Shown here one piece after another: positions 33,100 to 59,556 of a DNA stretch of 64,000 bases. The DNA is from an uncultured Chloroflexia bacterium (GTDB lineage: Bacteria > Chloroflexota > Limnocylindria > QHBO01): the NCBI GenBank assembly GCA_963827475.1, contig CAWHAZ010000004.1:192001-256000 (forward strand). The letters are read 5' to 3'. The position numbers were made by a program, and so were the translations under genes. Below the pieces are notes generated by a model that was given only the letters and a program-made list of their open reading frames with translations, ran no database searches and was not told the DNA's origin. Each line of letters begins with the position of its first letter. Within the stretch, counting starts at the first letter, position 1.

Positions 33100-33119
33100 C
33101 GTTCGCAGTGGCGCCTGAC

Positions 33120-33696: not shown

Positions 33697-34473
33697 TCAG
33701 GGTCTCAGGAGCAGCAGGCCGGTACCGCGACACGCCATCAGGAAGTATTGGGGTAAGAGGAACGGCGACATCACGAGGCCGGCAAGTGCCGCGACAGACG
33801 CCGATCCCTTCCAGACAATGAGCGTGGCGAGCGGAATGCTGATGAGAACCATGCGTTTCCGAAGATCCTGCCTAGCCCATACGAGAAGGACTCGTAGGTC
33901 AGCGACGCGGACCCGACAGGGACACGAGCCATTCCTCCGCCAGGCCAGAAGCGGCGAGGCCCACGAGCTGGACGAGGGCGATGGCCAGCGCCGGAACCCG
34001 GATGTCGGGGCGGTAGACACAGCCAGATCGCCAGCGGGATCTGGACCGGCCGGGGCATCAGCAGGGTCAGCGCGATGAAGATCAGGGCCCCGACGCGGGA
34101 GCCCGCGATGGCAACGCCGCGGCTACCGCGACGAACGTGAAGACGTTGCCGACGATGAGGTCGATCCAGAAGAACACGCTGAAGCCGACGAGCACAGCGT
34201 CAGACGGCCGAGCCGGGCCAGCGGCATCAACGCCACGAGTGGGCACGCCGAGCGCGATCGGTCCACCGAGACGAGGACGCCCACGGCCGGGATCAGGAGC
34301 GGCGAGTAGCGCCACGGGTGGTCGTAGACGGCCTGCCCCAGGACTCGAGTGGCCACCAGGCCGTCGCCCAGTCAGCGTTCGGCGCCGGTCGGAGCAGGAT
34401 CAGGAGGGCGAGGTTCGCGAGGGCGTCAGCCGTGCGAGCAACCAGAACTCGCGGCGGACCGCCGGATCGGCAC
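33697..34473 (-). CDS. GT87-like membrane glycosyltransferase (multiply frameshifted; ends approximate)
   Basis: PAPNADWAT, WRYSP, FWIDLIVGNVFTF, MPRPVQIPLA and PFLLPQYF across frames; paralog of 41619-42545. Confidence 0.65.
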
Positions 34474-34533
34474 CCTGAGGCCGCGAGCAGTCGAGACGCG
34501 TCGGGGCGACCCGCCGCGCGCCCGGACCATCGG

Positions 34534-35343
34534 TCAGTCCTCGGGAAGCTTGATCCAGCCCTGGCGCATGGCATAGACCACGGCCTGGGTGCGGTCGTTC
34601 ACGCTCAGCTTGCGGAGAATGGACGACATGTGGTTCTTCACCGTCTGCTCGCTGATGCCCAGGGTGTAGGCGACCTGCTTGTTGGTCATGCCCTGGGCGA
34701 TGTTGTCCAGGATCTCCACCTCGCGCGGTGAGAGCGGGGCGAAGATCGGCTGCGCGTCCGACCCGTAGACGGCCAGCTCGCGGAACTCCTTCAGGACGCG
34801 GCTGGCGACGGCCGGCCGGCTGAAGACCTTGTCGTTGATGAGGTACTCGCCGGAACGAACCCGGCGGATGATGGCGACCAGGTCGGTCGGGTCGATGTCC
34901 TTGAGGACATAGGCCGCCGCCCCCGCCTTGATGGCGTCGAACAGCTGGTCCTCGTCGTCGCCGCCGGCCAGCACGATGACCCCGGTGTGGGGCAGCTCGC
35001 GCTTGATGCGCTGGGTGGTCTCGATGCCGTTCGGTGCCGGCAGGGTGAGGTCCATGAGGACCACGTCCGGCGTGAGCTCCTCGACCACGGCGATGGCCTC
35101 GCGGCCACTCCCCGCCTCGCCAACGACGGTCATGTCCGCCTCGAGGTCGAGGATGTTGCGCACGCCCCGTCGGAACAGGGTGTGGGTGTCCACGATCACG
35201 ATGCGGGTCTTCTCGGTCGGCACCCGCCGGTCACGCCCGGTGCGCCGTTCCTTCGCGGTTTCCTCGGTCGCCTCGGCGGCCTGGGTGGTGTCCTTCTCGG
35301 CCTCAGCCGTTGCTCGTGCCACGTTCTCCTCCTTGACCTTCAC
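34534..35343 (-). CDS. NarL/DegU-like LuxR-family response regulator
   Basis: Receiver (VLMDLTLP, YVLKD) plus LSPREVEIL..GMTNKQVA..SEQTVKNH. Confidence 0.93.
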   Translation of the reverse strand: MKVKEENVARATAEAEKDTTQAAEATEETAKERRTGRDRRVPTEKTRIVIVDTHTLFRRGVRNILDLEADMTVVGEAGSGREAIAVVEELTPDVVLMDLTLPAPNGIETTQRIKRELPHTGVIVLAGGDDEDQLFDAIKAGAAAYVLKDIDPTDLVAIIRRVRSGEYLINDKVFSRPAVASRVLKEFRELAVYGSDAQPIFAPLSPREVEILDNIAQGMTNKQVAYTLGISEQTVKNHMSSILRKLSVNDRTQAVVYAMRQGWIKLPED

Positions 35344-35357
35344 TCCGCCCCCGGATG

Positions 35358-36404
35358 CTAGCGACTGGGCTCGGGGAGACGGAGCAGAATCCGCGTCCCT
35401 TCGCCCTGCCGCGATTCAATCTGCAGCTCCGACCCCATCAGCTCGGCGCGCTCGCGCATGAACTGGAGGCCGAAGTTGCGGGTGGCCCCGGTCGCCAGGC
35501 GCATGACGTCGAAGCCACGGCCGTTGTCGGCGATCACGAGGCGGTTGCTCTCGAGACTGATGCGGACCTCCGTCGCGGCCGCGTGCTTGCGGACGTTCTG
35601 GAGGGCTTCCTGGGTGATGCGCAGGACCGATGCCCGGGCCGCCGCCGACAGGCCGGCGTCGATGCCGTCGACCTCGACCGTGACGGTGATGCCGTTCCGG
35701 TCCTCGAACTCGCTGGCCGCGTCGCGCAGGGCGGCGGCCAGGCCGACCTCGACCGCCGGCGGCCGCAGGGTGGCGATGAAGCCGCGGACCTCCTCCAGCC
35801 CGTCGCGGAGCATGCTCCGCAGGAGCGCGAGCTCGGTCCGGGCCTGGGCGCTGGTCGCGGTCCGGGCGGTCCCGGCGGCGGCCGCTCCGGCCACCACCCG
35901 GTCGAGGTACTCGACCTGGAAGATGGCGTTGGTCAGGACCTGGGCCGGACCGTCATGGATCTCCTCCGCCAGCCGCTGCCGCTCCTGCTCCTGGGCCTGG
36001 ATGATGCGCAGGGCGGTGGCCGCGGCCGAGTCGTCGGTGGTGTCGAGCATCGGCTCGCTGGCGCCGGCGTCGGTGGAGGACAGGTAGCGGACGAGGAGGT
36101 CGAGCTGGCGCTCGGCGACCTCCAGCCGCTTCATCTTGTGCTGGACGTCGGCGAGCTCGCGGACGACCGACTCGTGCTCGATGCGGAGCGGATCGGTCTC
36201 GTCGAGGGACACGCCGCCGCCGTTGGTGTTGTGCTCGAGGCGGGCGCGGAGCTGGAGCCAGGTGCCGAGCCGTCGGCGGTACAGCGCCCGACTGCCCTCC
36301 GCCAGCCGATGGAGACGGCGAGCGGCACGCCCCAGGCTGTCAGCAGCCTGGGCGTTGAGGCGGTCAATCTGGACGACGCCGTTGCGATCGGCGGTCTGGG
36401 CCAC
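35358..36404 (-). CDS. DegS-like cytoplasmic histidine kinase (HisKA_3)
   Basis: Coiled-coil N-terminus with no TM; QERQRLAEEIHDGPAQ, QEALQNVRKHA, DNGRGF and FGLQFMRERA motifs. Confidence 0.9.
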   Translation of the reverse strand: MAQTADRNGVVQIDRLNAQAADSLGRAARRLHRLAEGSRALYRRRLGTWLQLRARLEHNTNGGGVSLDETDPLRIEHESVVRELADVQHKMKRLEVAERQLDLLVRYLSSTDAGASEPMLDTTDDSAAATALRIIQAQEQERQRLAEEIHDGPAQVLTNAIFQVEYLDRVVAGAAAAGTARTATSAQARTELALLRSMLRDGLEEVRGFIATLRPPAVEVGLAAALRDAASEFEDRNGITVTVEVDGIDAGLSAAARASVLRITQEALQNVRKHAAATEVRISLESNRLVIADNGRGFDVMRLATGATRNFGLQFMRERAELMGSELQIESRQGEGTRILLRLPEPSR

Positions 36405-36466
36405 GGCAAACCCTCGTGAAGTACCAGCGCCCGGCTGGTACCGGACTCGTGGGCCATCCTCCCGTC

Positions 36467-36489
36467 GCACTGTGCGTGCGGTCAACAGT
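36467..36489. promoter_or_regulatory. Operator-like motif shared with the cpaB upstream region
   Basis: GCACTGTGCGTGCGGTCAACAGT. Confidence 0.5.
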
Positions 36490-38101
36490 ACTAAGGAGCC
36501 GGAAGTACTAGTCCTCCGCTCCGCGTCAGTCGCGACGGGCTGAGCAATGGTGGCTCCCGGCCCGTCGTAGACGACCTCGTAGAACGGGCTGTCCGAGACC
36601 GTCTCGCGGAGTGCCGGGCAGCAGTCTGGAGGTGACAGCGGGCCGTTGACCTGGCCCTTGGGAATGAACAGCCACGCGTCGGCGAAGCCGGCGGCTGCCG
36701 CCCAGTCGACCATGCACTGGGCACTCGGCGCGGGTGCAGGTCAGGACGTCGACGTGCCGCCGCCGCTGGGCGGCGAAGCCGTCGCGCGCCGAGCCATTCG
36801 CTGCCCTGGACCGTGGCCACGCTCTGGCGGCCGGCCACGGCCGGGAACCACTCGCTGATCTCGTCGAACGCCCCAGACGCACGGTGCTGGCGACGATGAA
36901 CCGGGCGTCCGGATCGGTCTCGGTCGCGACCCAGGTCATGGCCGTCGCCTGATCCTGACGCTCACCCGCTGCAGCCGCGACGTCTCGTCCACAGCCGACG
37001 CCCACGCTGCTGATCAGCGCCAGGAAGAGCGCGGCGGCCGCGATGGCGATCCGCGGCGGTTCGATCCACCGACTCGCGCGCGGGCCCGATCCCGGTCGAC
37101 GAGGAAGCCGCACGCCCAGCTCCGGCCAGGAGGGACCAGGGGAGGGCGGCCATGAATGACGGCTCCGGCCTCGCCGGCGAGGACGAGGCAGGCGAGCAGC
37201 GCGGACAGCGCGGAATCCCGGCGCGGCGAGCTCGACCACCAGGCCCGAGCACGCCGAACACGAGGAAGAGGTCGGCGAAGGCGGCGCCCGAGAAGTTCAG
37301 CCCAAGGAGACTCGATGACGCCGAGCACCGGGTCCCACCGGTGGCCGGCGGCGAACGAGCGCGCCCGAGCCGTGTCGGCTGCGACGGCCACGACCCACGG
37401 AAGCACGACAAGGACGACCAGCGCGGCATGACACCGGCGACGACCACCGAGCGGACGGCCGGCCACGACCTCGACCGGGGCGGTAGGCGAGGACGGCCGA
37501 GCCGGCGGCCGCCAACACGGCCCGCTTGCGGGTGGGACAGAGCCGGACAGGCCGAGCGAGGACGCCCAGCCCCACCGACGCGCGGCCGGGAGCAGACCTT
37601 CGGGAGGCGGCCGCCACGCCATGGCGCAGGCATGCGCGAACAGGAGACCCGTTCCGCGGGTGACGCCGCCGCCGGCGACGATCCCGTCGAAGGCGTGCGG
37701 CATCAGCGCGTAGGTCGACGAGCCGCCACCGACGGCCGCCAGCGGGCGGAAGGACCCGGAACCGCGAGGACGGCGAACGCCGCCGAGAGTCAGCCAGCGA
37801 CAGACCGAAGGCGACAGGATCCGGACCACCTCCAGGCTGCTCGGCCCCGGTCAGCGTCCGCCGATGACAGCGGCGCGCGTACAACGCCGAGGGGCGGGTA
37901 CACGAACGGAAGGTCGAGCGTGGTTGTAGGTGGTGACCTGCCGGGAGCGCGAGCCGGACGCGTCGCGGAGGTCGTCGACCATGACCACGATCAGGCCGCC
38001 ATCCCGCGGCGTCAGGGGCCCCTCGACAGCCGGCAGGAGACGGACCAGTGCGCCGAGACCGAGGGCCACGCTAGCGCAGAACAGCGATCGATCGACTGCA
38101 T
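36490..38101 (-). CDS. GT-C-type multi-TM protein (heavily frameshifted; ends approximate)
   Basis: RDGGL..M, YPP, SVATVQGSEWLG and PPDCCPALR; paralog of 47783-49342. Confidence 0.6.
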
Positions 38102-39729
38102 AGATCCGGACGCCCTCGCATCGAAGACGCGGATCGCAGCTCCGTCGGCCTCGAAGACCGGCTCGCAGCCGAGCCAGGTGGCGGGATTTCCCTCGCTGTC
38201 CGTCGCCGCGCAGCCATCCCACAGTCCCAGTGGATCGGTCGTCGCGTCCTCCCGCAGGGTGATGAGCACCAGGCGGACGTCGTAGGCGCGGACGACCTCC
38301 TCGATGACCGGGTACGGGTCGAACGGCGCGGCCACGCCGGGATTGGCGGTGAGGTGCCACAGGGACGACGGGTCGCCGTACATCACGGTGACATCGGTCT
38401 GGCCGGACTCCTCAGGTAGGCAGCGGCCGCCAGCTCGCGCTGGTGCGAGGTGTCCCACAGGCGGTAGAGCGCCACCGAGCCGGCGACCGACAGGACCACG
38501 GCGCCGACCAGGGCGGCGACCTCCACGAACCGATGGGTCGGCGGTCGGGCCAGGAACTTCCACCCGCGGCCGAGGACGGTGAGCGTGGGGCCGGCGGCGG
38601 CGACGGCCATCGGGAAGGCGAACGGCAGCCAGGCCGCGGCCGAGTGGTAGTACGCGCCGTGCGGGGCGTGGAAGGTGAAGATCAGGCCCATGGCCACGAA
38701 CATCACCACCCAGTAGGCGATGAACGGCGCGGTCTCCGCGCGCCACCGCTCCCGCCACAGGCCGGCGAAGAAGAAGAAGCCGAAGATCCCGCCCAGCAGG
38801 ACGACCGTCCGCCAGCCGATCTCCCACCACGCCACGATCTTGGAGCCGATGATGTTCACCAGCCCCCACTCGAGGTAGGTGGCGGGCGACGGATTGGCGC
38901 TGATCGAGAACTGCTCGTTGTAGCTGGTGATCCACAGGGTGTGGCCGCCGGCCGAGGGGAAGGCCGACCCGAAGGTCGCCAGGTTGCGGCCGAGCCAGGG
39001 CGCCATGACCGCCAGACCGATGAGCCCGGCCAGCAGCAGAGCGCCCACTCCAAGCCGCCTGGCCCCCACACCGGACCACGGCCCCCAGCCGCGGTCGACG
39101 AGGAACGCCGTCGCGGGGGCCGCGGCCAGGAGCAGGCCGTCGACCCGGGCCAGGGTGGCGAGTCCGACCGCCGCGCCGGAGACGAGGAGCCAGGTTGTCG
39201 AGCGGCCGGGCCGGGTGGCGCGGATGGCGGCCCAGATGGCCGCTGCCCCGGCGGCGCCGAAGACGGCGAAGTTGTCGACCGTCGGATACATGATCAGGAG
39301 CGGCCCGGCGAAGATCGCGAGGAGGGCGGCCAGGACGGCGACCCGGCGCGACTGGTACAGGTCGATCCCGACCAGGTAGGTGAACGGGACGAGGGCGACG
39401 CCCAGGGCGAGGATCGGCAGCTGGCCGGCGCGCAGCTCCGGCCCGAGGAGGGCCATCCCGGCCGCGGCCACGATCGAGGTCAGCGGCATCCAGTGCCCGT
39501 TGCTCGGGACGGGGAGCATCGGATCGGCGGGGAGGCTGCCGCCGACCTCGAGGAAGGACCACAGCACCGGCGCGATGAAGCCGTGGCCGGTGGCGAGCTG
39601 CTCGGCCACCATCGCGTAGTAGGCTGGATCGGTATAGGGGGAGTAGTCGATCGCGAGAGCGGCCGCGATCCGCGCGACCAGCGCCGCGGCGGTCAGCAGC
39701 AGCAGGTCGGAGCCGCGGGGCCGAATCAT
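38012..39729 (-). CDS. ArnT/PMT (GT39/GT83)-like membrane glycosyltransferase (frameshift near 38410)
   Basis: DPAYY..VAEQLATGHGF, WMPL, GLATLAR.DG and PWLGRN motifs; many TM segments. Confidence 0.8.
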
Positions 39730-40580
39730 GGGCGTGGCGCGGGCGACATCGCGGGTGAGTCTATCGTGGCATGACGGCCCGAACGGGCTGCCATCTTTGC
39801 CCCTCGCCGGCGTACTTGTGGCGCTCGCGTGCCTGAGCCTGTGGGTCTCGTGGCCCACGATCGTGGCCGTCTTCGACGGCTCGTACGCCTTCGACTGGGC
39901 GAACTTCATCGAGGCCGGCGAGCGCTTCGGCACCGGCACCCTGTACGAGGTCGACCCGCCCTACGCCTTCCGCTGGTCGCCGGTGGCGGCGTGGCTCCTC
40001 GGTTTCGTGACCCTCATGCCGCTGTGGCTGTGGCAGGTCCTGCACCTCGCCGTCCTGCCCCTGCTCCGTTCGTGGCTGCTGGTCGCCGCGGTCCTGGTCA
40101 GCTACCCGTTCTGGTTCGACGTCCAGACCGGCAACCTGATGACCTTCGTGGCGGTGCTCGGCGTCCTCGCGCTCCGCGGCGGACGGGTGGCCACCGCCAC
40201 GTTCCTGGTCCTGACCGTCCTCATCCCGCGGCCGCTGATGCTTCCCCTCGCCGTCTGGCTGCTGTGGCAGCGCCCGGCCACCCGGCTGCCGTTCGCCGCG
40301 TTCTTCGTCGCCCATGCCGCGGTCGTGGTCGCGCTCGGCTACGGCGCGGAGTGGCTGGCGGCCCTCACCTCGGTCCAGGCCGAGCTGGGGAACGCCTACA
40401 ACTTCGGCCCGTCGCGCTTCATCGGGGCGCTGTGGATCCCCATCGGCCTGGCGCTCGCCGCGTGGCTGACCTGGCGTGGCCGGCTGGGGCTCGCCAGCGT
40501 GGCGATCAGCCCGTACTGGCTGCCGTACTACTTCCTGATGCTGCTCCTGGAGTTCGCGCCGCCCAAGACATGCGTTCGAC
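39728..40580 (+). CDS. GT87-like membrane glycosyltransferase (ends approximate)
   Basis: FDWANF, YAFRWSP, FWFDVQTGN, IPRPLMLP and SPYWLPYY motifs. Confidence 0.7.
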
Positions 40581-40774
40581 GAAAGTCCTCCCCGGGTACT
40601 ACCGCAAAAGCGCGGAATCCGGCTAATCTGCGCCGACCGGGCTGCCCGATATCGCCCGGAACGGAGGGAGGCCAGGATCGGCAGTCCAGGCGCTGCGGCC
40701 CGCAGCGCTGCGCAGGCAGTTACCCACACTGCGGCGCGACAGGAAGACGCATCGAAGGCGCCGTCGCCATTGGT

Positions 40775-41524
40775 ATGGCGATCGGCCTGTTGGCGTTCAT
40801 GCTGACCCGATCCTGGTCGGTGACCGACGGCGACGCCTACTGGAATGCCGCCATCCGTCTTCGAGATGGCCTGCCGCTCTACCGGAACTCGGGAATCAAG
40901 ACCTCCCGACGACATATCGATACGCTCCCGTGGCTGGCCTGGCTTGTGGATGCCTCTGACGCTCTTGCCCCATGACTTCGCGATCGCGACCTGGCAGGTG
41001 TTCCTCTTCGGGATGCACAGCGGTGGCCTGTATTCCCGCGATCCGACGCGGCGAATGGCTCCTTGCGGCGATTTCGTGGTTCCGTCCTTGCCTGGTCGGC
41101 CCAAGGGGGAAACGTGCACGCGGCACTTGATCGCTCTCCTCGTGTATGGAGTCGGTTCTCGCTGGGGACCGCTGGCGATCGGTATTGCGGCGAGCTTGAA
41201 GGTCTTCCCTATCGGGTACGCCGCTGGTGTACCTCGTGCGTCGGGAGTGGGGAAAGGCGCTGGCCTCGCTGTAGCGATTGCCGTCGTGCTGCTGGGCTGC
41301 CGGCGCTCGCGTACGGACTGGCGCGAACTATCCCGTGGGACATCGGGAACCCGTCAGCTCTGTGGAACGTCCATCCTGGCGGCTGGTGCCGGAGTTGTCC
41401 TCGCCGCCTATGTTCCTGGTGTGGCGACGAAGCACTGGCGTTCGGCTTCGTGTTCGTCACGTTCGGGACCTTACGGTTCATCGCCTACGACCTCGGCTAC
41501 CTCCTGCTCGGATCAGGGCGATAG
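40775..41524 (+). CDS. GT87 (DUF2029)-like glycosyltransferase (frameshifted, atypical composition)
   Basis: DGDAYWNAA.RL..G.PLY, YRYAPW, GGNVHA and ASLKVFP motifs across frames. Confidence 0.7.
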
Positions 41525-41618: not shown

Positions 41619-42545
41619 ATGGAGCTGTTGCCCGCCCGCCGCGGGCCTCGGATTTGCTGAGCCGCCCGACCGCGTCTCATTGTTGCGGTACACGGCGCTC
41701 CTGCTGTACGCGGCAGCGAACGTTCTCCTCCTCCTGGCCTTGATACCGGCCCCGAACGCCGACTGGGCCACGACGTGGTGGCAGCTGTCGACGTGGATCG
41801 CGGACGGAGAGCTGTACGCGCACACATGGCGGTACTCACCGTTGGCGCTGCCGATCATGGAGCCGATCATTCGCGCAGGGCCCCTCGCCCTGATCGGCCT
41901 GCAGCGCGGGCGCGATCGCGCTGCTCGCGCCGCTCGGACGAGTCGTTGTCTACGGAGTCGGCCTGTCGGCGTTCGTGTGGATCGACATCGTGGCCGGCAA
42001 CACGTTCACCTTCGTCGTAGTTGCCGCCGCCTTCGCCCTTCGTGGCTCGCGCTTCGGAGCTCTCGCGTTTCTCGCCCTCACTGCCCTGATGCCACGTCCA
42101 GTCCAGATTCCACTTGCGCTCTGGCTTCTGTGGACAAGACCCGACGACGCGGTGGCCGTTCGCCGCCTTGGCTCTCCTCACGCTGGCATTCAGCCTGGGG
42201 ACCGGACTGCTTGTTCCGTGGCTCGGTGCGCTCATGGGCTCGACATCGGAGGTTGCGGCGGCGTACTCGATTGGTCCCGGGGCAGTCCTCGGCAGTGCTT
42301 GGCTCTTGGTCGGCATTCCACTGGCAGCGATCCTGGCCCTGCGCGGCTGGCCGGCGATGGCTGGGTTGGCGCTTTCGCCGTATCTGCTCCCTCAGTATCT
42401 GGCGCTGGGGGTAGCCGAGATTGCATGCTGGCTTTCACGGCCACAAGGGAGTCGGCTCGCCCCGGTTCAGATGGCGCGGGCGGTGGAGGCCATTCCGATA
42501 GGAGTCGGCGAAGCATTACCCGATGGATCACGCGCGCCCGGTTAG
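41619..42545 (+). CDS. GT87-like membrane glycosyltransferase (frameshifted)
   Basis: PAPNADWAT, WRYSP, WIDIVAGNTFTF, MPRPVQIPLALW and SPYLLPQY motifs. Confidence 0.68.
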
Positions 42546-44105
42546 GGCTGCGTCGGATCGCACATAGGGGATGTGGCGGCGGGGGCCCTCACCGGCGCCG
42601 CCAGACCGCGGAGATCGGATCCTCGATAGACCAGTGTGCCAATCTGGGCTCGCGTCCAGCCACGCTCCGAGGTCTGAGCGCTGAGGCGAACACGACGTAG
42701 TCGACCTCGTATCGGTCGAGGACCGCCTGCGGGTCGCCGCGATGCCGATGACGTCGGCGTATCCGTCAGGAGCTCGTCGCTGTAGATGTCCTGCGCGCGC
42801 CCGTCCACGAAGACCAGGTGGCCCGGTCGCTCGTGGATCAGGTAGCCGCCCCACTCGTACCGGTTGAAGACCCGCTCGCCGGGCTGTCTCGGCATTCAGC
42901 CACGCGACGGCGCCGGCGGGAAATGCGCCGGCCTCGGCGCCGCCTGGGCGGCGGCGTCACCTTGGCCAGCGACACCCCAACCCCGAGGATGACCAGCAGG
43001 GCGGCAAGGGCGAGGTGGAGCGGTGATCTAGAGCCCCTCGCGCGGGACCGTGAGGTTGTCGAGCTTCGGCGTGGACCATCGGCCGAATCGTGACGCGGCC
43101 AGACCGGGCTCGAGGTTGATGGCGGCCACGACCGCGACCAGCGGGCCCATGAGCAGCAGGAAGCGCAACGCGAACAGCGGCATCAGGCCAGGCCGATGAC
43201 GATCAGCGCATCGGACAGGCGCAGCTTGCGGCGGAGGTTGGTCAGGGTCGGGACGACCGCCACGAGCAGGAACGCCAGGTACGCCGGCCAAGAGGCGCGG
43301 GTCGTCGGTCACCGGGAACCACTCGTGGATGTACAGGTTGATCACCGAGTTGCCGATGGCGTGCAGCGGGATAGCCCCAGAGCGCCGTCCCGTTGGGGTT
43401 CAACGCCAGCGCGCCGAAGGCAACGATCAGGGCGAGGCCCAGGTCGCGCAGCTGGCGCGGTTCCAGCGGTCCCGGGGAGACAGACCGATGGAGAAGCCGA
43501 TCCCCGGCTTCTCCCACCAGGACCGCCCCGCCAAGGAGGAACAGCATCGGCCAGCCGGCGTGGAGGTTGGCCCACGCCGCCGCGACGAACGGAAGGGCCA
43601 CGACCCAGCGCCGCTGCCGGTCGACCAGGTAGCGGGCGAGGAGCCACAGGACGACAGCGCTGAGCAGCAGGTCGACGATCTGGACGCGGACGCCCAGCAC
43701 CGGCGCGGCCAGGATCAGGCCGAGGGTCAGCCACACGATCCGCCACGCCCAGCGCACAGCCGGGTTGCGGACGCCGATCGTCCGCCACAGGACGGCGAAG
43801 GCGGCCACCACCAGCAGGCCGAACGTGAGCGACAGGACGGTCTCGCCCAGCGGGTCGGTGCCGCGGATGGCCGCCATGGCGGCGTTCGTGAGCCAGTCCT
43901 GGCTGATCCACGGCGTGCCGAAGGCGGTGAAGCTCCACGAATCTGCCCGCGGCACGGCGCCGGTGGCGAGGATCTCCTCGCCCGCGCGCAGGTGCCACCA
44001 CACGTCGCCGTCGATGAGCGGCCACGTGGCGCTGGGAAGGACTGCGGCCATGAAGAACGCGATGACTGCGATGCCCGACGCCGCGAGGCCGCGGGCGATG
44101 AACAT
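42542..44105 (-). CDS. GT-C-type multi-TM protein (frameshifted)
   Basis: DVWWHLRAG, D.WSFT, WANLHAG, IHEW, YEWGGYL and VFVDGR motifs; paralog of 46281-47756. Confidence 0.75.
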
Positions 44106-44192
44106 GGCGCGGAGTCTAGGGGCGCACCGCGCCCCGAAACCCTGCCCATTCGTACCGCTGGTCGGCCTCGCCGCCGGTGCTAGCCTCGCGCG

Positions 44193-46088: not shown

Positions 46089-46280
46089 GCTGCCACGCCG
46101 CCTGCGGGCGGACCGATCCGCCGCGCGTTACGTGGCTTCGTGATAAGGACGGCCTATCACGAGGCTGTCGTACCGAACGGAACATGCCGCCGGCAGCCCG
46201 CCGGGATCGGTACCTTCAGGTCATCCCGGTGCGTACAGGCACCGACTAGACTCGCCGCCGATGCTCAGGCCGCACCCCTC

Positions 46281-47756: not shown

Positions 47757-47782
47757 CCGATGCCGGGCCGTCGCCGGCCCGG

Positions 47783-49342: not shown

Positions 49343-49344
49343 CC

Positions 49345-50645: not shown

Positions 50646-52982
50646 ATGCGGCCATCGCCTCCTGACTGCCGCCGCGAAGTCCCGCGCGCGAGACCTCGCG
50701 ATTCTGCTGGGCTGCTCGCCCTTGCCTACTTCGTGCTGCTCGGCGAAGCCGGGCAGCGAGACCCGCATCCGATCATCCGACTCCTGAATGCGGCCATCGC
50801 CGGGACCCTGATTCTGATCTACCTCGTGGATGCGCCACCCGGGCGGATCGCGTCGACAAGGGCGTCCTGCTCGCCCTCCTCCTCTTTGCCGGCGCGGCAG
50901 TCCTGTCCCAGTTCCCTCGCCAGTCGTTCGACGCGCTGCTCGGTGCGCTCCTCTTCGCCGCTGGCTTCTTCGTCGCCCGCTCGCTGCTCGGATCGGACGA
51001 GGGCGGCGGGCGTTTGCGCTCTGCCTCATGGCCCTATCGGCGGTGTTGACCTTCGTGACGGCTGCTCGGTGTTGCTCCCCCGTTTTTCGAGTGGTGGGCG
51101 CTGAACGACTGGGCGGTCTTCCCCCCGCTGAACCTGGAATTCTCCGGTCGTGCCGTGGGGCCACCGTCATGATCTGACCCTACTCGTCGTCATGCTCTAT
51201 CCAAGCTGGTGGCTGGGTCGCATCTCCCCGTTGCGAGCTGCCGTGGGGACCGTTGTCGGCATCCTGGCCCTGCTCATCGTCATCGTCGACGGCTCACGGA
51301 ACCTCTGGCTGGCCATGGCTGTGGCATCTGTGGTGCTGGGCCTTCCCTTCGGTAGGAAGTACTGGCCGTCCGAGCGCAGGCGGCAAGTCGCTCTCGCGGT
51401 TGGGCTGATTGTCCTGATCGCGGTCCTGGTCCTCAGCGGAATCCTCGGCCTGCTCCTCGAACGCGCCTTCTCCACGGCATCGTTGGGCTTCGGTGGGCGA
51501 TGTGGCTCCCACTGATCGATGCATGGCTGTCGAAGCCCATCGCTGGCTTCGGTCCCGGCTCGTTCCCCTGGGTCCTCCAGCTGACCGACTACTTCCAAAC
51601 GAACAGCTTGGCACCGCGTCATCCCGACAGCGTCGTCTTCCAATTGCTCGCCGAGGCCGGCCTGCTTGGGGTTGCGGCGGTGACGGTCCTGCTGGTCACG
51701 CTGGTACCGGCCATCGTGCGCGGTCGGTCGCGGGCCGCCATATGGGTGCTGACCACGTTCGCGGCGGCCGGATTCGGCGCCAATCCGACGGACTTCGGCT
51801 TCCTCGTGGCGGTCGCGATCGCCTGGGCCGCATACGCCATTCCCCACGTGGCCCCGACCGGGGCGCCGGAAGCTCCGGCCCGGGTTCCGAGCGACGATTG
51901 CGTACGAATCCGATCACGATCGTCACCTTGGCCGCGTTCGGCATCGTTGCGATTGCCTGGTCGGCGACCTCGGTCGCCGGTATCTCGCACCAGGCGATTC
52001 GGGTAGCCGCCGCCGAAGGGTTCCTGGAAGAAGCGGCTGCCCAAGCGAAGATCGCGGGAGAACTCGATCCGGGCATGGCGCTCTACGCCCGCGCGCTCGG
52101 CGCCGCACGTCTCCTACAGGGGGAGGCTGTCTTGGCGGTCGGCCCTCTGACCCGAGCGACGGAGCTGAACCCAAGTGACGATCTCGCATGGCGGACTCTG
52201 GCACTTGCCCACGAGGCAGCGGGCGACGCGGCATCGGCGCAGACCGCTTTGGACCGTGCACTCGAGGTGCAGCGGTCAGATCCGACGAACCTGCTCCTCC
52301 TCGCGAGATTGCAGCTCGAGTCTGGCCGGGATACCGATGCCGTAGTGACGCTCGCCGAGGTCGTCCAGGCGTGGCCCGAAATCGTGGCTGCGCCGGGCTG
52401 GTCGGACCAACTACCACCCGGAACGACTACGCCTGAGGTGGTCGAGCTCGCCCTGGAACGATGGTCCGGCGGCCGTCCGTCGCCCGAACCCCCGCTTACC
52501 CAGCAGATCACCCTGGCGGCGATGGCGGGCCGCGACGACTTGGCTGCGCGGTGGGCCGAGGAGCGCCTTGGTCCATCCTTGGGTCCAATGTTCGTCGCGG
52601 TCATGGCCTGCCAACAAGATGCGCCGTCGCTCTTGCAACAGGCGACCGGCGATGTGCGCAGGTCGTCGCTGTACTGGCAACTGGTGGCTCGTCAGGCGGC
52701 GCTGGAAGGTCGCACGGACACGAAAGCCGCCCGGCTGCTGGAGATCATGGTCGCATGGTGCCCCGCCCCCGGACCTCACGGAGCGCACGTTCAACCCATT
52801 GGAGGAGACCGGCGGTGGATTCAGTGCCGATCGCTGGGGCTACCGGCGAACTCCGATTGAATGGCCAGACTACCGCGTCCTGCCCTCAGTGCAGGCAGGC
52901 GCAGGCACGGTGGTGGTACGCCGATCCGTTGGGCGCGATTCACGCAGCGGATCTCGACGGCGTCATGACCAAGTGCGGCTGA
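50646..52982 (+). CDS. O-antigen ligase (Wzy_C/WaaL/PglL)-like protein with C-terminal TPRs (frameshifted, atypical composition)
   Basis: GSRNLWLA, PIAGFGPGSF and HPDSVVFQLLAEAGLLG; TPR-like ATELNPSD..AWRTLA. Confidence 0.75.
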
Positions 52983-53292
52983 CACGCCCGACGAGGCGAG
53001 AGCGGTTGTCGCCACTTGTGAGCATCATCCTCGTCATCGCCTCCGCGGCCCAGTCTGAGGACTCCGGATCGGTTGGCGGCGGTCCTGGACCCTCGAGGAC
53101 GCCGAAGGTGTCGCGGCCCGAATTCTGACATCCTGGCCTGGACGTGCTACCGGTCATTTGTCCTGACGGCTCCGAGGGTTTCCCCCGAATCCACTGCGGG
53201 GCGACGAACCACTGCGGCCAGCCACACGCTGTGCGTCCCCGTTACTCGCCGGATGCCAGCGAGACCAAGTGGCAGGGCAGCGATCATGGCAG

Positions 53293-54159
53293 TCAGCACG
53301 TGACCCCAGTAGATGTCCGGTTGCGGACGGTCATCGCCAGCCCCAAAAAGGCAAAGGACAGACGATCATTTCGAACTCCCCAGGCGCCGATGAGCAGGGC
53401 AGACCGCGACCAGGTATCCGACGCCGGCCTCCCGGCGCACGCGAATGAGGGAGCGCGTAGTCCGGGCAACCGGGCACGGAGTTTCCCAACGCGACGTAGC
53501 CAGTCGGTCCAGTAACCCGGCGTGGATGAACCAATGTCGCCGACCGAGGAACTGCCGCCGAGATGACGAGAGGAATGCCGACGACACCCTTCTGTCCGAA
53601 CGGTCCAGACCAGGCCCATCAGCGGGTAGACCTTGATCGCGCCGAACAGGAGTGCCGGGATCGCAGACCACCGCGGCCAGAGCCACATGGCGCCAACGGC
53701 GGCAGCGACCATCGGTGACATGTAACCAGTTCTCAATCCCGCCATCGCAGGGTGGGCCAGCGCAACGGCGGCGATCCCGAGCGCCGCAGGGAACGGAAGG
53801 CGCCCGAGTTCCCTGCGCACGATCAGCAGCACCACCGCCACCAGCGCCGCGATACTCAGCAGATTCCACGCATAGAAGAAGGCCTCGCCCAAGGTGAATG
53901 GAACGAGCAGGAGCGCTCCCGATGGCGGATAGACGAATCCCCTCCCCCAGGCGGCCGCGTCGAGCCAGTACGGGCCCGCCAACTGCATGGCGGAGTACGG
54001 TGAGGTCCCGCCCCAGATTCGACCGGAGCCCTCCGCATACGAGAGCGCGTCCGCCCAACCAGAGACTGTGAACTCTTCAGCGAAGAGGCTCACCGAGGCC
54101 GCCAGAAACGCAAGCGAGTCCCAGAGCCGTGAACGCCCACCAGGCCAGTTTGCGGGCAT
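53293..54159 (-). CDS. GT87 (DUF2029)-like glycosyltransferase (frameshifted)
   Basis: DALSY..G, SPY, GFVYPP and AIKVYP motifs. Confidence 0.72.
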   Translation of the reverse strand: MPANWPGGRSRLWDSLAFLAASVSLFAEEFTVSGWADALSYAEGSGRIWGGTSPYSAMQLAGPYWLDAAAWGRGFVYPPSGALLLVPFTLGEAFFYAWNLLSIAALVAVVLLIVRRELGRLPFPAALGIAAVALAHPAMAGLRTGYMSPMVAAAVGAMWLWPRWSAIPALLFGAIKVYPLMGLVWTVRTEGCRRHSSRHLGGSSSVGDIGSSTPGYWTDWLRRVGKLRARLPGLRAPSFACAGRPASDTWSRSALLIGAWGVRNDRLSFAFLGLAMTVRNRTSTGVTC

Positions 54160-54295
54160 AGCCGCTGGTGAAGGGGTCCCGCCATGAGGACCGAGATGGG
54201 CACTAGTCCTGTGGACACGGGTCCTGAGAGTACGGCCAGTCCGCAAGTCGGGCCGCTCTGCTCCATCGGCCGCGCGGCCCACCAGTCCGCGCTAG

Positions 54296-55195
54296 CCTAT
54301 GTAATCGGCGCGGTTCTCGTGGCGGCTCTGCGCCTCCCCGGTCATCGTCGTCGGTATCCCGCGCCAACTCCGACCTCGGACTGCCGAGTGGTGTCGGTCG
54401 GTCATCGCCGCGGCGGCGACATCGCCGCGTGCGACTCCGACGGGGACGAGGCCACGGCGGCGCTGCTGGACGAGCTGGACGGGACCATCCTCGTGCCGGG
54501 CGATCTCGCCTACCCGAGCGGGACGGCCGCGGACTTCGCCAGCTGCTACGACCCGTCGTGGGGCCGGCACAAGGACCGGACCCGGCCGGTTCCGGGCAAC
54601 CACGAGTACGAGACCGACGGCGCGGCCGCGTACTTCGACTACTTCGGGGCGGCGGCCGGCGACGCCGGCCGAGGGCTGGCACGCCTTCGATCTCGGGGCG
54701 TGGCGGATCATCGGTCTGAACTCGAACTGCGACGAGATCGGCGGCTGCGGCGCCGAATCGCCGCAGGGCGCCTGGCTCAGCGAGGACCTGGAGACCAACC
54801 GAGCCGAGCCTGCACGCTCGCGTTCTGGCACCACCCGCGCTGGAGCTCGGGCGTGGAGCACGGGTCGAGCGCCGCGACCGATGCCTTCTGGCGGCTGCTC
54901 CACGACGCCGGCGCGGACCTGGTCCTGACCGCCCACGACCACCAGTACGAGCGCTTCCAGCCCGATGGACGCGGACGGCGCAGCCGGATCCCGACGGCAT
55001 GGTCGAGTTCGTGGTCGGCACCGGCGGGCGGTCGCTGTACGAGCTTCGCCGAGATCCTGCCCACCAGCGCCGCCCACGACAACTCGACCTACGGCGTCCT
55101 GCAGCTCACGCTCCGCCCGGACGGCTACGACTGGGAGTTCGTCTCCGCCACCGGCACGACGCTTCGCCGACTCCGGCACCGCCGCCTGCCGCTGA
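54296..55195 (+). CDS. Calcineurin-like metallophosphoesterase (frameshifted; start uncertain)
   Basis: GDIA, GDLAY, PGNHEY, WHHP, AHDHQYER and FVVGTGG motifs. Confidence 0.85.
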
Positions 55196-55251
55196 GGCAC
55201 GGCGGTCGGGAGCGGGTCGAGCCGGCTGAGGCGCGCGTACACTCCCCGGAC

Positions 55252-58200
55252 GTGATCGGCTGCCCGAACTGCGGAACCGAGAATCCCGAGCACGCCCGCT
55301 TCTGCCTGTCGTGCGGCACCGCGCTGGCCGCCACGGCGCCGGCACGGGGCGAAGAGCGGAAGGTCGTCTCGGTCCTGTTCGCGGACCTGGTGGGATTCAC
55401 CTCGGCCTCGGACAAGGCCGACCCGGAGGACGTCCTCGCCACCCTGCGCCCGTACCACGCCCTGCTCCGGGCCGAGATCGAGCGCTACGGCGGCACGGTC
55501 GAGAAGTTCATCGGGGACGCGGTCATGGCCGTCTTCGGCGCGCCGGTCGCCCACGAGGACGACGCGGAGCGGGCGGTGCGCGCCGGGCTGCGGATCGTCG
55601 AGGCGCTGACCGAGCTCAACAACGAACGCCCCGGCCAAGACCTCGCCGTCCGGGTGGCGGTGAACACCGGCGAGGCGATCGTCAGCCTGGGGGCACGCCC
55701 GGAACAGGGCGAGGGGATGGTGGCCGGCGACGTGGTGAACACCGCCTCACGGCTCCAGCAGGTGGCGCCGGTCGGCGGCGGTGGTGGTCGGCGAGGGCAC
55801 GTGGCGGGCGACCCAGCAGATGATCGACTTCGAACCGATGGACGCGGTCGAGGTGAAGGGCAAGGCGGAGCCGATCCCGGTCTGGCGGGCGATCCAGGCC
55901 CGCAGCCGGTTCATCGTGGAGGTGGACCGCCCGACGAACCCGTTCATCGGTCGCACGAGCGAGCTCGAGCTGCTCCGGCAGGCCTATCGGCGGATGATCC
56001 GGGAGGAATCGGTCCAGCTGGTGACCGTCACCGGCGAGCCGGGCGTCGGGAAGAGCCGGCTCATCGGGGAGTTCTTCGCCTGGGCCGACAGCGAGCCGGA
56101 GCTGTTCTTCTGGCGCCACGGCCGATGCCTGCCCTACGGCGACGGGGTCACCTTCTGGGCGCTGGGCGAGATCATCAAGGCCCAGGCCGGCATCCTCGAG
56201 ACCGATGGACCGGAGGAGGCCGACACCAAGCTGCGCGAGGCGGTGGCGCTCGTCGTCGAGGACGAGGCCGACCGCGACTGGATCAGCGGCCAGCTCGCCG
56301 CCCTGGTCGGGTCGCGCCCCGGGGCGGCGGCCTCGGCCGACCGGGCCGAGACGTTCTCCGCCTGGCGCGCGTTCCTGGAGGCGATGGCCGCCTTCCGGCC
56401 GCTGATCCTGGTCATCGAGGACCTCCACTGGGCCGACGACGCGATGATCGAGTTCGTCGAGTACCTCGCCGAGTGGGCGACCGGGGTACCGCTGCTCATC
56501 CTGTGCACCGCCCGCCCGGAGCTGTACGAGCGGCGGCCGGGATGGGGCGGCGGGAAGCGGAACTCGACGACGGTCGCGCTCAGCCCGCTCCAGGCCGATG
56601 AGATCGCCGCCCTGGTGTCGGCCATGCTCGAGGAGACGCTCCTGCCGGCCGAGACGCAGGCCGCGCTCCTCGAGCGGGCCGGCGGCAACCCGCTGTACGC
56701 CGAGGAGTTCGTCCGGATGCTCACCGACCGCGGCATCCTCCAGCCGGCAGGGCCGCGCGTGGCAGATCGTGGCCGACGGCGACATCCCGGTGCCGGACAC
56801 CGTCCAGGCGCTGATCGCAGCCCGGATGGACACGCTGTCGCCGGAGCGCAAGACGCTCCTCCACGACGCGGCGGTCATCGGCCGGGTGTTCTGGCCCGGC
56901 GCGCTGGCCACGATGGGCGGGGCGGATCCGGACCGACGTCGTGGCCGGGCTCCACGACCTGCTGCGCAAGGAGCTGGTCCGCCCCGTCCGCCGCTCGTCG
57001 ATGCAGGGCGAGGACGAGTTCACGTTCTGGCACATCCTCGTCCGCGACGTGGCCTACGCCCAGATCCCGCGCGCCCAGCGGGCGGAGCGCCACCGCAAGG
57101 CGGCCGGCTGGATCGAGCGCGCCGCCGGGGAGCGGGTCGGGCGACCACGCCGACATCCTGGCCCATCACTACCTCCAGGCCATCGAGCTGGGAGCGACGG
57201 GGAGTGGCGAGGAGGATGCCGAGCTGCGGGCGTCGGCCAGCCGCTACCTCTTCCTCGCCGGCGAGCGGGCCAACCAGCTCGACAAGGCGCGCGCCGAGCA
57301 GCTGTACCGGCAGGCACTGGAGCTGGTGCCCGCCGGCAGCCTGGAGGAGGCGGAGATCCGGCTCAGCCTCGGCGCCAGCCTGTTCAGCGCCGGGCGCGAC
57401 TCCGCGGAGGAGCATCGCGCTGCTCGAGGGCGCCGAGGCGATGTTCGCCACCCACGGCGAGGTCACCCGCGCGGCGTTCGCCAAGACCATCCGGGCCATG
57501 GTGCTCCGACACCGGAACGAGATGGACCTCAGCCGCGCTCTGCTGGCCGAGGCACGGGAGACGCTCGAGCGCCAGCCGCCCGGGATCGAGCTGGTGCGGG
57601 TGTACGCCGCCCTCGGCGGGGATGCCATGCTCCGATCCCTGTACCCTGAGTCGTGGAGCTATGCCCAGAAGGCGATCGACCTCGCCGAGCAGCTCGGCCG
57701 CCCCGAGCTGAAGGTGCGACCCATGCAGTACCGCGGCTGGGCGCGATGGGACGCGCGCGACGCGGAGGGCGCAAAGGCAGACCTCGGGCGCGCGGTGGAG
57801 CTGGGCCTCCAGGTGGGCGACGCCAGCAGAGACGGCGATCGCCTACAACAACTACGCGGGCCTCCGCTGGGCGTGCGGAGGGACCGGTGGCCGGCCTGGA
57901 AACGTGCGGGGAGGGCATGGCGTTCGTCGGCCCGCCGCGGGATGGAGGGGCCGCGGCTCTGGAGTCGCTCGGAGAAGCACGTTCTGCCTGTACGACCTCG
58001 GGCGCTGGGACGAACTCCTGGCGGTCGCCGAAGAGGTCGAGACGGAGGCCGCGGACAGCGGACGTGGACGCAGATTGCCGGGTTCAGCCGTCCCGATGCG
58101 GGTCAAGGTCCACTTCTACCGCGGCCAGCCGCGGAGGCCGCAGACGCCGCGGCCACCGCCCTGCCGGCCGCCCGAGAGGCCGGCGATCCCCAGCTGCTGA

Positions 58201-58708
58201 TCCCGGCACTCGAGGCCCAGGCGCTGCTCGACGTCGCCGCCGGCCAGGCCGCGCGAGGCGATCCGACGCGCTGGAGGAGATCGAGCGGATCACGGCCGAG
58301 ACGACGCCACTGGTCGGCTCGCTTGCGGCCGAGCTCGTTCGCGTGGCGTGCCGGGCCGGTGACCTGGGCCTCGCCCATCGGCTGGTGGACAGCAACCCGG
58401 CCATGCCCGGGCGATCGGAGAGCATCGTGGTCAGCGGGCGGGCGGTCATCGCCGAGGCCGAGGGCCGGCTCGAGGAGGCGGCGGACGGGCTTCCTGGACG
58501 CCGCTGCGCGGTGGGCGGCTTACGGGTCAGTCATGGAACAGGGCCACGCGCTCATCGGCGCGGGGCGGTGCCTGATCGCGCTCGGTCGGCCAGCGAGGCG
58601 GCGGACGCCGCTCCGCGCGGCTCGAGAGCTGTTCGCGGGCCTGGCGCCACGGTCCTGATGGCCGAGGTCGACGACCTGCTGGCCCAGACCACCGCCCGCG
58701 CCGGCTAG
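55252..58708 (+). CDS. Zinc ribbon - class III adenylate/guanylate cyclase - STAND AAA ATPase - TPR protein (multiple frameshifts)
   Basis: CPNCG..FCLSCG, LFADLVGFT, EKFIGDAVMA, GDVVNTASRLQ, GEPGVGKSRL, IEDLHWAD and GNPLYAEE motifs. Confidence 0.9.
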
Positions 58709-59556
58709 AGCGGAGCGAGGCTCCAGCGGCCGCGGCCCTCATCGGCCGTTCGCCGGTCAGCCACGTACAGAACGCGGCACTCCCCGCCAGCAGGGCGAGG
58801 GACGAGGTCCACACGTTGGGCAGGGCGAGCATGACCCCGATCGGCAGCAGCCACGACCGGTTCCACCGCGCGGCGACCACGATCACGACCACCGCGATCG
58901 GCAGCCGGACGAGGAACGGCAGCGGGATGACCTGGATCCGCGGGTCCGACCCGACGTTGGCCACCAGCAGCGAGATCCACTCCGCCCACAGCTCGGCCGA
59001 GAACAGGACCGATACGCCCACGATCGCCGCCGTCAGGCCCAGCCCGACCCACAGCGCGCGCCACTCCCCGCGCAGGGGGTGCCACAGGATCCCGATCCCC
59101 GGCGTGACCTTGGTGAGGAACGGGAACGCCCACGCCCCCGCGCCCCACGGTTGGCGCCACACGGCGAGGACGACCGCCCCGGCCAGGAAGACGTGGATGT
59201 TGCCGCGCAGGATGTCGTCGACGACCCCCGGAAAGGCGAGCATCCACGGCACCCGCATCCAGAACAGGATCCCGATCGCGAGCCCGGTCCACAGGGCCGC
59301 GAACGACCGGCCAGGGGAGCAGGGTGAACGGGTAGAGGAGCTGGGCGAAGGCGGGGGAGTAGACGTAGGCCTCGTAGTCCAGCCACGGGATGTCGTACAG
59401 GCCGCCGTCCCACGCGTTCCACATGCCGTAGGCATCGAACATCGGTCCGTACTCGGGGACGGGCTCGGCATACGGCACGATCCGCAGCCACACCGCGGCG
59501 ATGTAGATCAGGCCGGCCAGGGTCAGGCCATGCCGCAGCGCGTCCCAGCGCGTCAC
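58705..59556 (-). CDS. GT87 (DUF2029)-like glycosyltransferase (frameshift near 59310)
   Basis: FDAYG.W, YVYSPAFAQL, DILRGNIH and LTKVTPGIG motifs. Confidence 0.8.
   Translation of the reverse strand: MTRWDALRHGLTLAGLIYIAAVWLRIVPYAEPVPEYGPMFDAYGMWNAWDGGLYDIPWLDYEAYVYSPAFAQLLYPFTLLPWPVVRGPVDRARDRDPVLDAGAVDARLSGGRRRHPARQHPRLPGRGGRPRRVAPTVGRGGVGVPVPHQGHAGDRDPVAPPARGVARAVGRAGPDGGDRGRIGPVLGRAVGGVDLAAGGQRRVGPADPGHPAAVPRPAADRGGRDRGRRAVEPVVAAADRGHARPAQRVDLVPRPAGGECRVLYVADRRTADEGRGRWSLAPL

Follow-up and report, generated by a model that had tools for sequence, protein, structure and literature searches.

A species-variable array of GT-C glycosyltransferases beside the tad pilus locus of a Limnocylindria bacterium: a candidate island for assembling and diversifying an envelope glycan

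Why would a small bacterial genome keep some fourteen membrane glycosylation genes side by side, next to its pilus locus? The question is raised by a 64,000-nucleotide stretch of DNA (hereafter, the window) from an uncultured bacterium of the class Limnocylindria, in the Chloroflexota, a placement with which the public names of its closest homologs agree (Candidatus Limnocylindria) (GenBank assembly GCA_963827475.1, contig CAWHAZ010000004.1, forward-strand positions 192,001 to 256,000; G000:C4:192001-256000 in our coordinates), whose genome is a 1.92-Mb assembly of 7 contigs with 70% G+C. In a sequence-only reading, positions 33,697 to 59,556 of the window had been described as an array of about 14 glycosyltransferases of the GT-C fold and proposed to form an extracytoplasmic glycan-diversifying system, possibly decorating Tad pilins or the envelope. 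We consider it probable (about 0.6) that the array is a species-variable island that assembles and diversifies a cell-surface or envelope glycan from polyprenyl-phosphate sugars on the outer face of the cytoplasmic membrane. The GT-C folds and the species-variable gene content described below uphold the general proposal, but not the link to pilins in the form given.

The content of the array was established by a Pfam scan of all 186 stop-to-stop open reading frames (ORFs) of at least 90 amino acids overlapping 33,000-60,500 (gathering thresholds: 25 bits for GT87, PF09594; 26.1 bits for PMT_2; 31.7 bits for Wzy_C, PF04932), together with local hidden Markov models (HMMs) and the mapping of orthologs. 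Between 33.7 and 59.7 kb there are eight PimE/GT87-like genes, five larger GT-C genes and one Wzy_C-TPR gene, exactly the eight small, five large and one ligase-TPR genes counted earlier, although only thirteen are GT-C genes, as Wzy_C is a ligase/polymerase family and not a classical GT-C. As judged from ortholog mapping, the array stops on the right nearer 59,660-59,720 than 59,556. Neither GT2 nor nucleotide-sugar enzymes were found by Pfam among the ORFs of 33-60.5 kb, an absence that had also been noticed before, and no Pfam match to a flippase was seen inside the array. The idea of an uninterrupted glycosyltransferase array was rejected because five other genes sit within the span: a two-component pair, an FAD oxidase, a metallophosphoesterase and a cyclase/AAA regulator. 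From left to right, the order is GT87-like remnant, response regulator, histidine kinase, L2a, L3 (GT39/ArnT-like) and an FDW-type gene; then DGDAYW GT87-like, ADWAT FDW-type, second DPD, QDLATY GT87-like, GT87, DPD and L2b; and finally FAD oxidase, Wzy_C-TPR, GT87-like, metallophosphoesterase, cyclase-AAA regulator and GT87-like.

The eight small genes were recognised with different degrees of ease. Three pass the Pfam GT87 threshold, at 45012-46127(-) with 72 bits, 53296-54291(-) with 35.2 bits and 58530-59507(-) with 29.0 bits, and a fourth, at 44120-45106(+), falls just below it with 23.4 bits; among the orthologs in G014, a relative of the same genus, five of eight pass. Three more, at 39755-40600, 40742-41327 and 41912-42485, were recovered with HMMs made from unbroken orthologs, and a multiply frame-broken remnant at 33733-34198(-) completes the set. 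The best Pfam match of the array (45012..46088, minus strand; E 7.9e-20) is an intact GT87 gene (FDFTCCY...FRYSP) with 8 transmembrane segments predicted by a hydropathy scan and with orthologs in G014, G010, G017 and G009 at 84-88% identity; a sequence search of the PDB with its protein gave no match. The QDLATY gene (44193..45106, plus strand) has one frame break near 44650, which leaves two pieces in different frames with 89% and 93% identity to an unbroken ortholog in G014, and the gene at the right end of the array (58716..59658, minus strand; one frame break at about 59303) is likewise split between two frames, with pieces 72% and 77% identical to their intact counterpart in G014. By contrast with these, the gene at 53326..54123 (minus strand; ADALSY...FVYPP) lies in a single frame (custom HMM, E 4.6e-29; 51% identity to G014 gene 13). 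The DGDAYW gene (40660..41521, plus strand) is frame-broken and low in third-position G+C (GC3); its intact ortholog in G012 (L018:338-1399), which tblastn places in two window frames, aligns with the GT87 paralogs in A3, our alignment of 8 GT87-scoring sequences.

The other three small genes belong to a subfamily, here called FDW, that is represented by 380 clusters and that Pfam does not see, since its GT87 model matched 0 of the 60 members aligned in A2. The FDWANF gene (39728..40573, plus strand) is intact, its frame running on into the next gene; the ADWAT gene (41650..42485, plus strand) occupies at least two frames and was matched by the A2 HMM on two adjacent ones (E 6.7e-23 and 6.3e-28). 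The remnant at 33697..34450 (minus strand), of the FDW/ADWAT subtype, is scattered over at least three frames. Its ORF translations hold ADWAT, WRYSP, GN and PRP motifs, a collinear tblastx chain links it to 41710-42127 (E 4.6e-36), and the A2 HMM matches four pieces (E 1e-4 to 3e-8). No counterpart of it was found in G014 by synteny comparison (33671-34522), and it is also absent from G010. The kinship of FDW with the other small genes is nevertheless clear from profiles: A2 and the GT87-scoring paralogs align with a hhalign probability of 98.9 (E 1.5e-17), and the A2 HMM matches the bona fide GT87 gene at E 5e-30. A PimE-like GT-C fold was found for the GT87/PimE family, and the top 19 structural-match rows (VIA) of the FDW predicted structure are GT-C or PIG-U. 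Judging from this high-confidence model, FDW is a PimE-like GT-C subfamily that Pfam does not recognise.

The motifs on which the sequence-only reading had relied, namely a shared first-loop Asp, F/Y-x-Y-S/A-P, GN and K/R-x-P, are real in both alignments. In A3, Y96 and P98 (F-R-Y-S-P), G163 (G-N) and P196 (K-x-P) are invariant, and the first-loop Asp aligns in most sequences; in A2, three prolines (P85, P167 and P169) never vary, G135 hardly does, and D56 has a conservation of 90% or more. In a report on PimE, the catalytic base is D58, located where the first juxtamembrane helix has its tip; Y62 and the phosphate-binding K195 are described as essential, and polyprenyl-phosphate mannose as the donor (10.1101/2024.09.17.613550). 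The D-x3-Y/F patterns (DAEAY, DGQVY, DALSY, DLATY, DWANF) and K/R-x-P motifs, whose conservation is seen in sequence alignments, have a spacing that, on sequence alone, may correspond to that of D58 and Y62 of PimE.

In addition to these, there are five larger GT-C genes of three kinds. Two of them make up the window's share of the DPD family (alignment A1), which is unclassified: no Pfam or NCBIfam model matches it, and among more than 1310 homologs every named one of the 120 listed is a "hypothetical protein". One member (46272..47753, plus strand) is intact and encodes 486 amino acids with a small C-terminal globular domain. The second, of the DPD/DGD type (42764..44111, minus strand), is frame-broken; the A1 HMM matches it at 43551-44078 (E 1.7e-21) and 42758-42886 (E 2.5e-6), and its intact 508-amino-acid ortholog in G012 (L018:1446-2969), which has no Pfam match, is placed by tblastn in two frames. 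According to a predicted structure of high confidence (predicted local distance difference test, pLDDT, 86.4; predicted template-modelling score, pTM, 0.86), DPD has the GT-C fold: GT-C enzymes account for all 25 Foldseek matches at E <= 1e-3 and, together with PIG-U, for 47 of the top 50 structural-match rows (VIA). Thus, two families invisible to Pfam, DPD and FDW, came out as GT-C in the modelling that had been set beforehand as a check of the fold. The best matches of the A1 model are the protein-glycosylating enzymes STT3, DPY19, PglB, AglB and Pmt4, and the model carries an AglB-like C-terminal domain. The A1 sequences share an invariant D-P-D in the first external loop and, at the start of the C-terminal globular domain, an invariant YGWGGY with a DGRN-x-MY block, which sits about where oligosaccharyltransferases carry their characteristic WWDYG motif. 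However, neither an STT3 Pfam match nor WWDYG occurs in A1, which does not place the family within STT3/AglB/PglB, its members are about 200 residues shorter than STT3, AglB, PglB and DPY19, and searches of the PDB with the A1 profile at E 1 and E 10 gave no match.

The L3 gene (38123..39879, minus strand; one frame break near 38413) is GT39/ArnT-like. In the whole-genome search it reached 34.6 bits against PMT_2 at 38992-39486, above the cut-off, whereas hmmscan assigned that ORF to no family at E 0.01. Proteins homologous to its G014 ortholog go by the names GT39 or ArnT-like, and PF13231 or PF02366 (PMT) is present in some of them. The L2 family, PMT_2-like and endowed with a Cys-rich C-terminal domain, has two genes in the window and three paralogs in G014, at 32-36% identity. 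L2a (36537..38099, minus strand) is heavily frame-broken, but its N-terminus, PLTPRDGGLIVVMVDDL, is visible in translation, and intact orthologs from G014 and G010 land in several window frames by tblastn; the G014 ortholog scores 18.7 bits against PMT_2 (E 0.0021), below the cut-off. L2b (47741..49257, plus strand), with many frame breaks, shows an N-terminal FPVNDGGLF...YPPLAFY and a weak STT3 match, and its G014 ortholog reaches 25.1 of the 26.1 bits needed for PMT_2; its Atlas neighbours (score 0.99) carry PMT_2 in 24-57% of their members. The support for L2 as a GT-C is weaker than for the other families, as it comes from these sub-threshold PMT_2 scores and neighbours and from a hhalign comparison with the GT39-like family (probability 89.6, E 1.9e-6).

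The remaining glycosylation gene, Wzy_C (O-antigen ligase/polymerase-like) with a C-terminal TPR domain, lies at 50706..52906 (plus strand), is low in GC3 and has at least four frame breaks, with its Pfam matches spread over three frames at 51132-52857(+). One window fragment reaches 34.2 bits against Wzy_C, above the threshold, and the intact 768-amino-acid G014 ortholog, which lands in 5-6 pieces by tblastn, reaches 48.0 bits. A sequence search of the PDB matched only the TPR part. Overall, three GT87-like window genes, L3 and this one Wzy_C fragment exceed the Pfam thresholds for the families that had been suggested from the letters.

The grouping of these genes is not a matter of chance. 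Four of the seven Pfam GT87 matches of the 1.92-Mb genome fall in the 26-kb span, all places matched by the custom HMM except one (C6:39949-40761) lie within the window, and the clustering of GT87 is far beyond what chance would give. The paralogs resemble one another only as proteins; in the DNA of 33-60 kb, a repeat search revealed no long repeats, whether direct or inverted. Of 61 Limnocylindria genomes (a tally that includes the unpublished genome G073), 59 have a GT87 match, the number per genome ranging from 0 to 18 around a median of 7. An unusual richness in GT87 can be dismissed for the present genome: its seven Pfam matches equal the class median, so that it is ordinary for its class.

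What does vary is the content. The G014 array also has eight small, five large and one ligase-TPR genes, but of a different set: it possesses three GT87-like genes and one L2 gene that are not in the window, and lacks the genes found here at 33.7-34.5 kb and 40.6-44.1 kb as well as the cyclase regulator. Arrays of G006 and G074 carry a methyltransferase. Such variation from species to species within a genus agrees with glycan diversification. In the family f3, arrays additionally hold GT2, UDP-glucose dehydrogenase, epimerase, GT4, methyltransferase, acyltransferase and PIG-V-like genes, a set that, to judge from its annotation, is a self-contained glycan pathway. We found no papers on such arrays in Chloroflexota in the literature searched.

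The neighbourhood points in the same direction. In f2 genomes, arrays combining GT87 and DPD-family genes are flanked by MreB, WecG/TagA (GT26), PHP and LPG_synthase_TM on one side and by SpoIID and ComF-like genes on the other, with an FAD oxidase and no tad genes, and the MreB/PHP/LPG_synthase_TM trio lies directly beside the GT-C array. Upstream in the window there are an EPSP-synthase-family gene (MurA-like by position), MreB, PHP and LPG_synthase_TM (the last three at 10.3-13.3 kb), followed by ComF-like, DUF192 and S30AE at 14-15.8 kb, and both groups are separated from the array by the tad locus. Since neighbours are shared between f2 and the window, the array belongs to a conserved envelope neighbourhood, whether tad is present there or not. 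The LPG_synthase_TM membrane protein of the window (12222-13301, adjoining PHP and MreB) was recognised at 179.6 bits.

The two-component pair, with Pfam matches at 34537-36740(-), is also a constant companion. The response regulator (34537..35343, minus strand; intact; REC and LuxR/GerE HTH domains) scores 92.8 bits for Response_reg and 79.1 bits for GerE and is 91.6% identical to its G014 ortholog, and the histidine kinase (35358..36713, minus strand; intact; HisKA_3 and HATPase_c) is 76.7% identical to its own. HisKA_3 kinases flank the array at all loci examined (the window, G014, G053, G074, G021 and G029), as does a LuxR-type regulator at all of them except G074, and the f2 arrays keep both (loci of relatives: L025:3394-5377, L027:4290-7569, L023:3-2366 and L026:11529-14289). 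The pair is present even where tad is absent, and its target may be the array and not the pilus.

Folds, family relationships, clustering, synteny and the changing gene content have been demonstrated here. In the scheme that we infer for donors, acceptor, aspartate mechanism and regulation, about thirteen GT-Cs of four families (eight PimE/GT87-like, one GT39/ArnT-like, two PMT_2-like with the Cys-rich C-terminal domain and two STT3-shaped DPD enzymes) would each take a sugar from a polyprenyl-phosphate carrier and form one linkage on a growing lipid-, wall- or protein-bound glycan, with the first-loop aspartate as the catalytic base. The Wzy_C-TPR protein would then polymerise or ligate the product; the HisKA_3/LuxR system travels with the array as its companion. 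The donors would be made elsewhere in the genome by GT2-type synthases; four GT2 matches exceed the threshold in the genome, all outside the array, one at C5:225.2-226.0 kb adjoining sugar dehydrogenase fragments and another at C5:265.6 kb adjoining a GT87/PMT_2-like gene.

By analogy, the principle of such an array is already known from mycobacterial and three-component systems. In mycobacteria and corynebacteria, lipomannan, lipoarabinomannan and phosphatidylinositol mannosides are assembled by PimE, MptA-D, Aft and Emb from polyprenyl-phosphate mannose or arabinose. Here, however, the genes belong to Chloroflexota and form one tight, species-variable array rather than lying scattered, structural alignments give 16-18% sequence identity to PimE, and the NCBIfam model of the mycobacterial mannosyltransferase gives 31 bits against a cut-off of 413. 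Three-component systems for extracytoplasmic glycan decoration, such as GtrABC, ArnC/ArnT and those of PMC11127046, consist of a GT2 polyprenyl-phosphate-sugar synthase, a flippase and a GT-C. They resemble the present case in the lipid-linked monosaccharide donor that we propose and in the periplasmic-face GT-C, and the arrays of f3 relatives do contain GT2; the window's array, by contrast, has neither GT2 nor flippase, and thirteen GT-Cs rather than one. As with the pilin O-oligosaccharyltransferases PglL, TfpO/PilO and TfpM of the Wzy_C family, a Wzy_C domain protein stands next to pilus genes, but this one has a TPR C-terminal domain and its neighbour is a Tad/Flp rather than a type IVa pilus.

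That neighbour is a complete tad/flp locus (15733..33299, minus strand), so the placement of the array next to pilus genes was correctly perceived. It encodes TadE/G-like pseudopilins, TadC, TadB, CpaF, a REC-CpaE-like ATPase, CpaB and Flp (33120-33299), which Pfam identifies through Tad, TadE, T2SSF (twice), T2SSE, Response_reg with ParA, RcpC and Flp_Fap; no prepilin peptidase was identified among these matches. The CpaE/TadZ-like ATPase (30758-32002) bears an N-terminal receiver domain (Pfam, 99 bits), an architecture also seen in G053 and G074. A 946-codon frame at 19783-22623, with HisKA, HATPase_c and two TadE-like domains, is probably two or three genes fused by indels. The array begins about 400 bp from flp, with the same layout in G014 and G010. 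Among nine genomes of other genera that have the tad ATPase, five (G031, G033, G053, G074 and G065, that is, five genera of families f1 and f3) have it 8-15 kb from a GT87 array, whereas 51 kb separate it from the closest GT87 match in G028 (f3), and in the f2 genomes G029, G021 and G039 it either has a contig different from that of the closest match or lies 64 kb away from it. G026 gave no tad ATPase match. Adjacency of array and tad locus is found within the genus and in those five genomes and breaks down in f2.

Although we favour an envelope glycan, some observations weigh against a working island of this kind. The tad adjacency in f1 and f3 leaves a pilus-related role some probability; 10 of the 14 glycosylation genes are frame-broken, with a break density in the array three times the genome mean, and therefore part of it could be truly decayed; codon periodicity is weak at 40.6-43.4 kb and 50.7-54.3 kb; and no public sequencing run holding this strain was found, the best sharing 0.12 of the sampled words. 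The adjacency, to begin with, would fit a dedicated glycosylation of Tad pilins or TadE/G-like pseudopilins, in which the Wzy_C-TPR protein or an oligosaccharyltransferase-like GT-C would transfer a glycan built by the GT-Cs. Beyond the shared layouts given above, this would suit a Wzy_C family that contains pilin O-oligosaccharyltransferases and the protein-glycosylating relatives of the A1 model. The match of the Wzy_C protein to the NCBIfam model of TfpM (NF058641; E 5e-6), however, covers only the Wzy_C core, and its 25.8 bits are far from the cut-off of 600. Additionally, the arrays of G029 and G021 form a unit with no tad gene beside it, and the f2 array, with its DPD and two-component genes, has tad on another contig or some 450 kb away. 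As for the presumed substrate, Flp has 59 amino acids, of which about 40 remain after the G/QTLVEY cleavage site, and the mature protein has no N-X-S/T sequon and few hydroxyl residues, with only two Ser in its exposed tail. To our knowledge, moreover, pilin glycans need far fewer than thirteen transferases. No reports of glycosylated Flp pilins were found in the literature searched, and the account of the Caulobacter Tad pilus structure describes no glycan density (PMC10710030). A pilin-specific role is, thus, possible but disfavoured, and we regard it as quite unlikely.

The protein-glycosylating likenesses may instead be read more broadly, as a general system in which PMT-like O-mannosylation with PimE-like extension, an oligosaccharyltransferase-like transfer by DPD, or both, would modify secreted and surface proteins. 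The GT39 names and PF02366 domains among L3 homologs (38-39.9 kb), the closeness of the A1 model to STT3, DPY19 and Pmt4, its AglB-like C-terminal domain and the invariant blocks at the start of that domain are all in keeping with this idea, but the family has no STT3 match and no WWDYG, and the neighbours (WecG, MreB, SpoIID) are cell-wall polymer genes, and we judge it unlikely. A more specific version is that DPD may be a compact bacterial counterpart of STT3/AglB that, together with the PimE-like enzymes, glycosylates surface proteins, including Tad pilus subunits. It would echo archaea, in which glycosylation of type IV pilins depends on AglB and from which Tad pili probably derive; we offer this as a speculation and consider it very unlikely.

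Should most of the island in this strain be a pseudogene graveyard, inactivated by real frameshifts, the array would no longer work. Only four of the glycosylation genes are unbroken (39728-40573, 45012-46088, 46272-47753 and 53326-54123), segmentation by codon periodicity and usage, which yields long uninterrupted frames over the window's first half, shows the frame switching often beyond 36.5 kb, and a codon-usage proxy of frame switches counts 17 events in 33-60 kb (6.3 per 10 kb), against a mean of 5.2 per 25-kb bin and a maximum elsewhere of 14 among 74 such bins; the remnant at 33.7-34.45 kb and the two segments of weak periodicity fit the same picture. However, the proxy counts 413 events genome-wide (2.1 per 10 kb), including housekeeping regions, and the breaks are isolated 1-base indels after which the coding signal carries on in the new frame (mapped at 49543 and 50036 in the FAD oxidase, at 44648 in the QDLATY gene, at 38414 in L3, and as a 1-base insertion at 59304 in the GT87-like gene of the right end). 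With 67-86% DNA identity, the G014 assembly (about 50 contigs) keeps the gene order of the window all the way from the ATP synthase genes to tad and the array, and its genes there are uninterrupted; by tblastn, its QDLATY protein, FAD oxidase (three frames), 58.7-kb GT87 and 38-39.9 kb protein are all split on the window. G012, in turn, supplies intact orthologs of two genes that G014 lacks. The 45-46 kb gene is split in three of five same-genus assemblies with 20 contigs or fewer and in none of the four with at least 50, one of which has an internal TGA. In contigs of relatives from four public runs (85% likeness), the additional base found here at 49543 is missing, and there are length differences near 44627/44651. 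As the orthologs in G014 and G012 are intact and breaks occur genome-wide, assembly error is the likely cause of most of them, with indels seemingly denser where strains differ, and a wholesale loss of the island appears very unlikely. Some genes may have really decayed, the remnant being the clearest candidate. In practice, single-base indels throughout the assembly mean that gene calls need comparison with a relative.

GC3 bias is weaker at 40600-43400 and 50700-54300 (about 0.70-0.78, compared to about 0.9), and the intact G012 ortholog of the DGDAYW gene likewise has atypical codon usage; recent acquisition from elsewhere is therefore suggested for these parts.

As for the remaining genes in the span, the FAD-dependent oxidoreductase (49351..50642, plus strand; Pfam matches in three frames at 48967-50642) belongs to the amine-oxidase, protoporphyrinogen-oxidase and phytoene-desaturase superfamily, beyond which a sequence search of the PDB did not go; its G014 ortholog matches NF005560 (PRK07233, "hypothetical protein") with 443 bits against a cut-off of 252. 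Its substrate might be a lipid-linked sugar or the polyprenol carrier. An FAD oxidoreductase is also present in the G014 array (L014:14850-16139), and an FAD/NAD(P)-binding oxidoreductase lies beside the array of G021, from f2 (L023:2908-5052). The metallophosphoesterase (54346..55152, plus strand) is 52% identical to its G014 ortholog, whose N-terminus is signal-like, and is followed by a frame-broken regulator with Zn-ribbon, adenylate/guanylate cyclase and AAA_16 domains (55250..58705, plus strand), the Pfam matches of both genes extending across 54172-57646(+); by synteny, G014 has no counterpart of this regulator at the corresponding place (window 55200-58786). Downstream of the array, 59835-63998 holds a SnoaL-like protein, a Phd/YefM antitoxin (61261-61569), a SUKH-like protein and a GT4 gene that starts at 62,820 and extends past the end of the window.

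Limnocylindria are widespread in soil and lakes, and we know of no pure culture. If the envelope-glycan reading is right, the array implies that more than 1% of a 1.9-Mb genome is given over to extracytoplasmic, lipid-carrier-dependent glycan assembly of a kind best known from mycobacteria, and the turnover of its content between species is what would be expected of a surface structure under pressure from phages or grazers. A pilin link, if true, would make this the first glycosylated Tad pilus system known to us. The most useful by-product may be the two sizeable GT-C families that neither Pfam nor NCBIfam recognises, the STT3-shaped DPD and the PimE-like FDW, which would be targets for enzymology.

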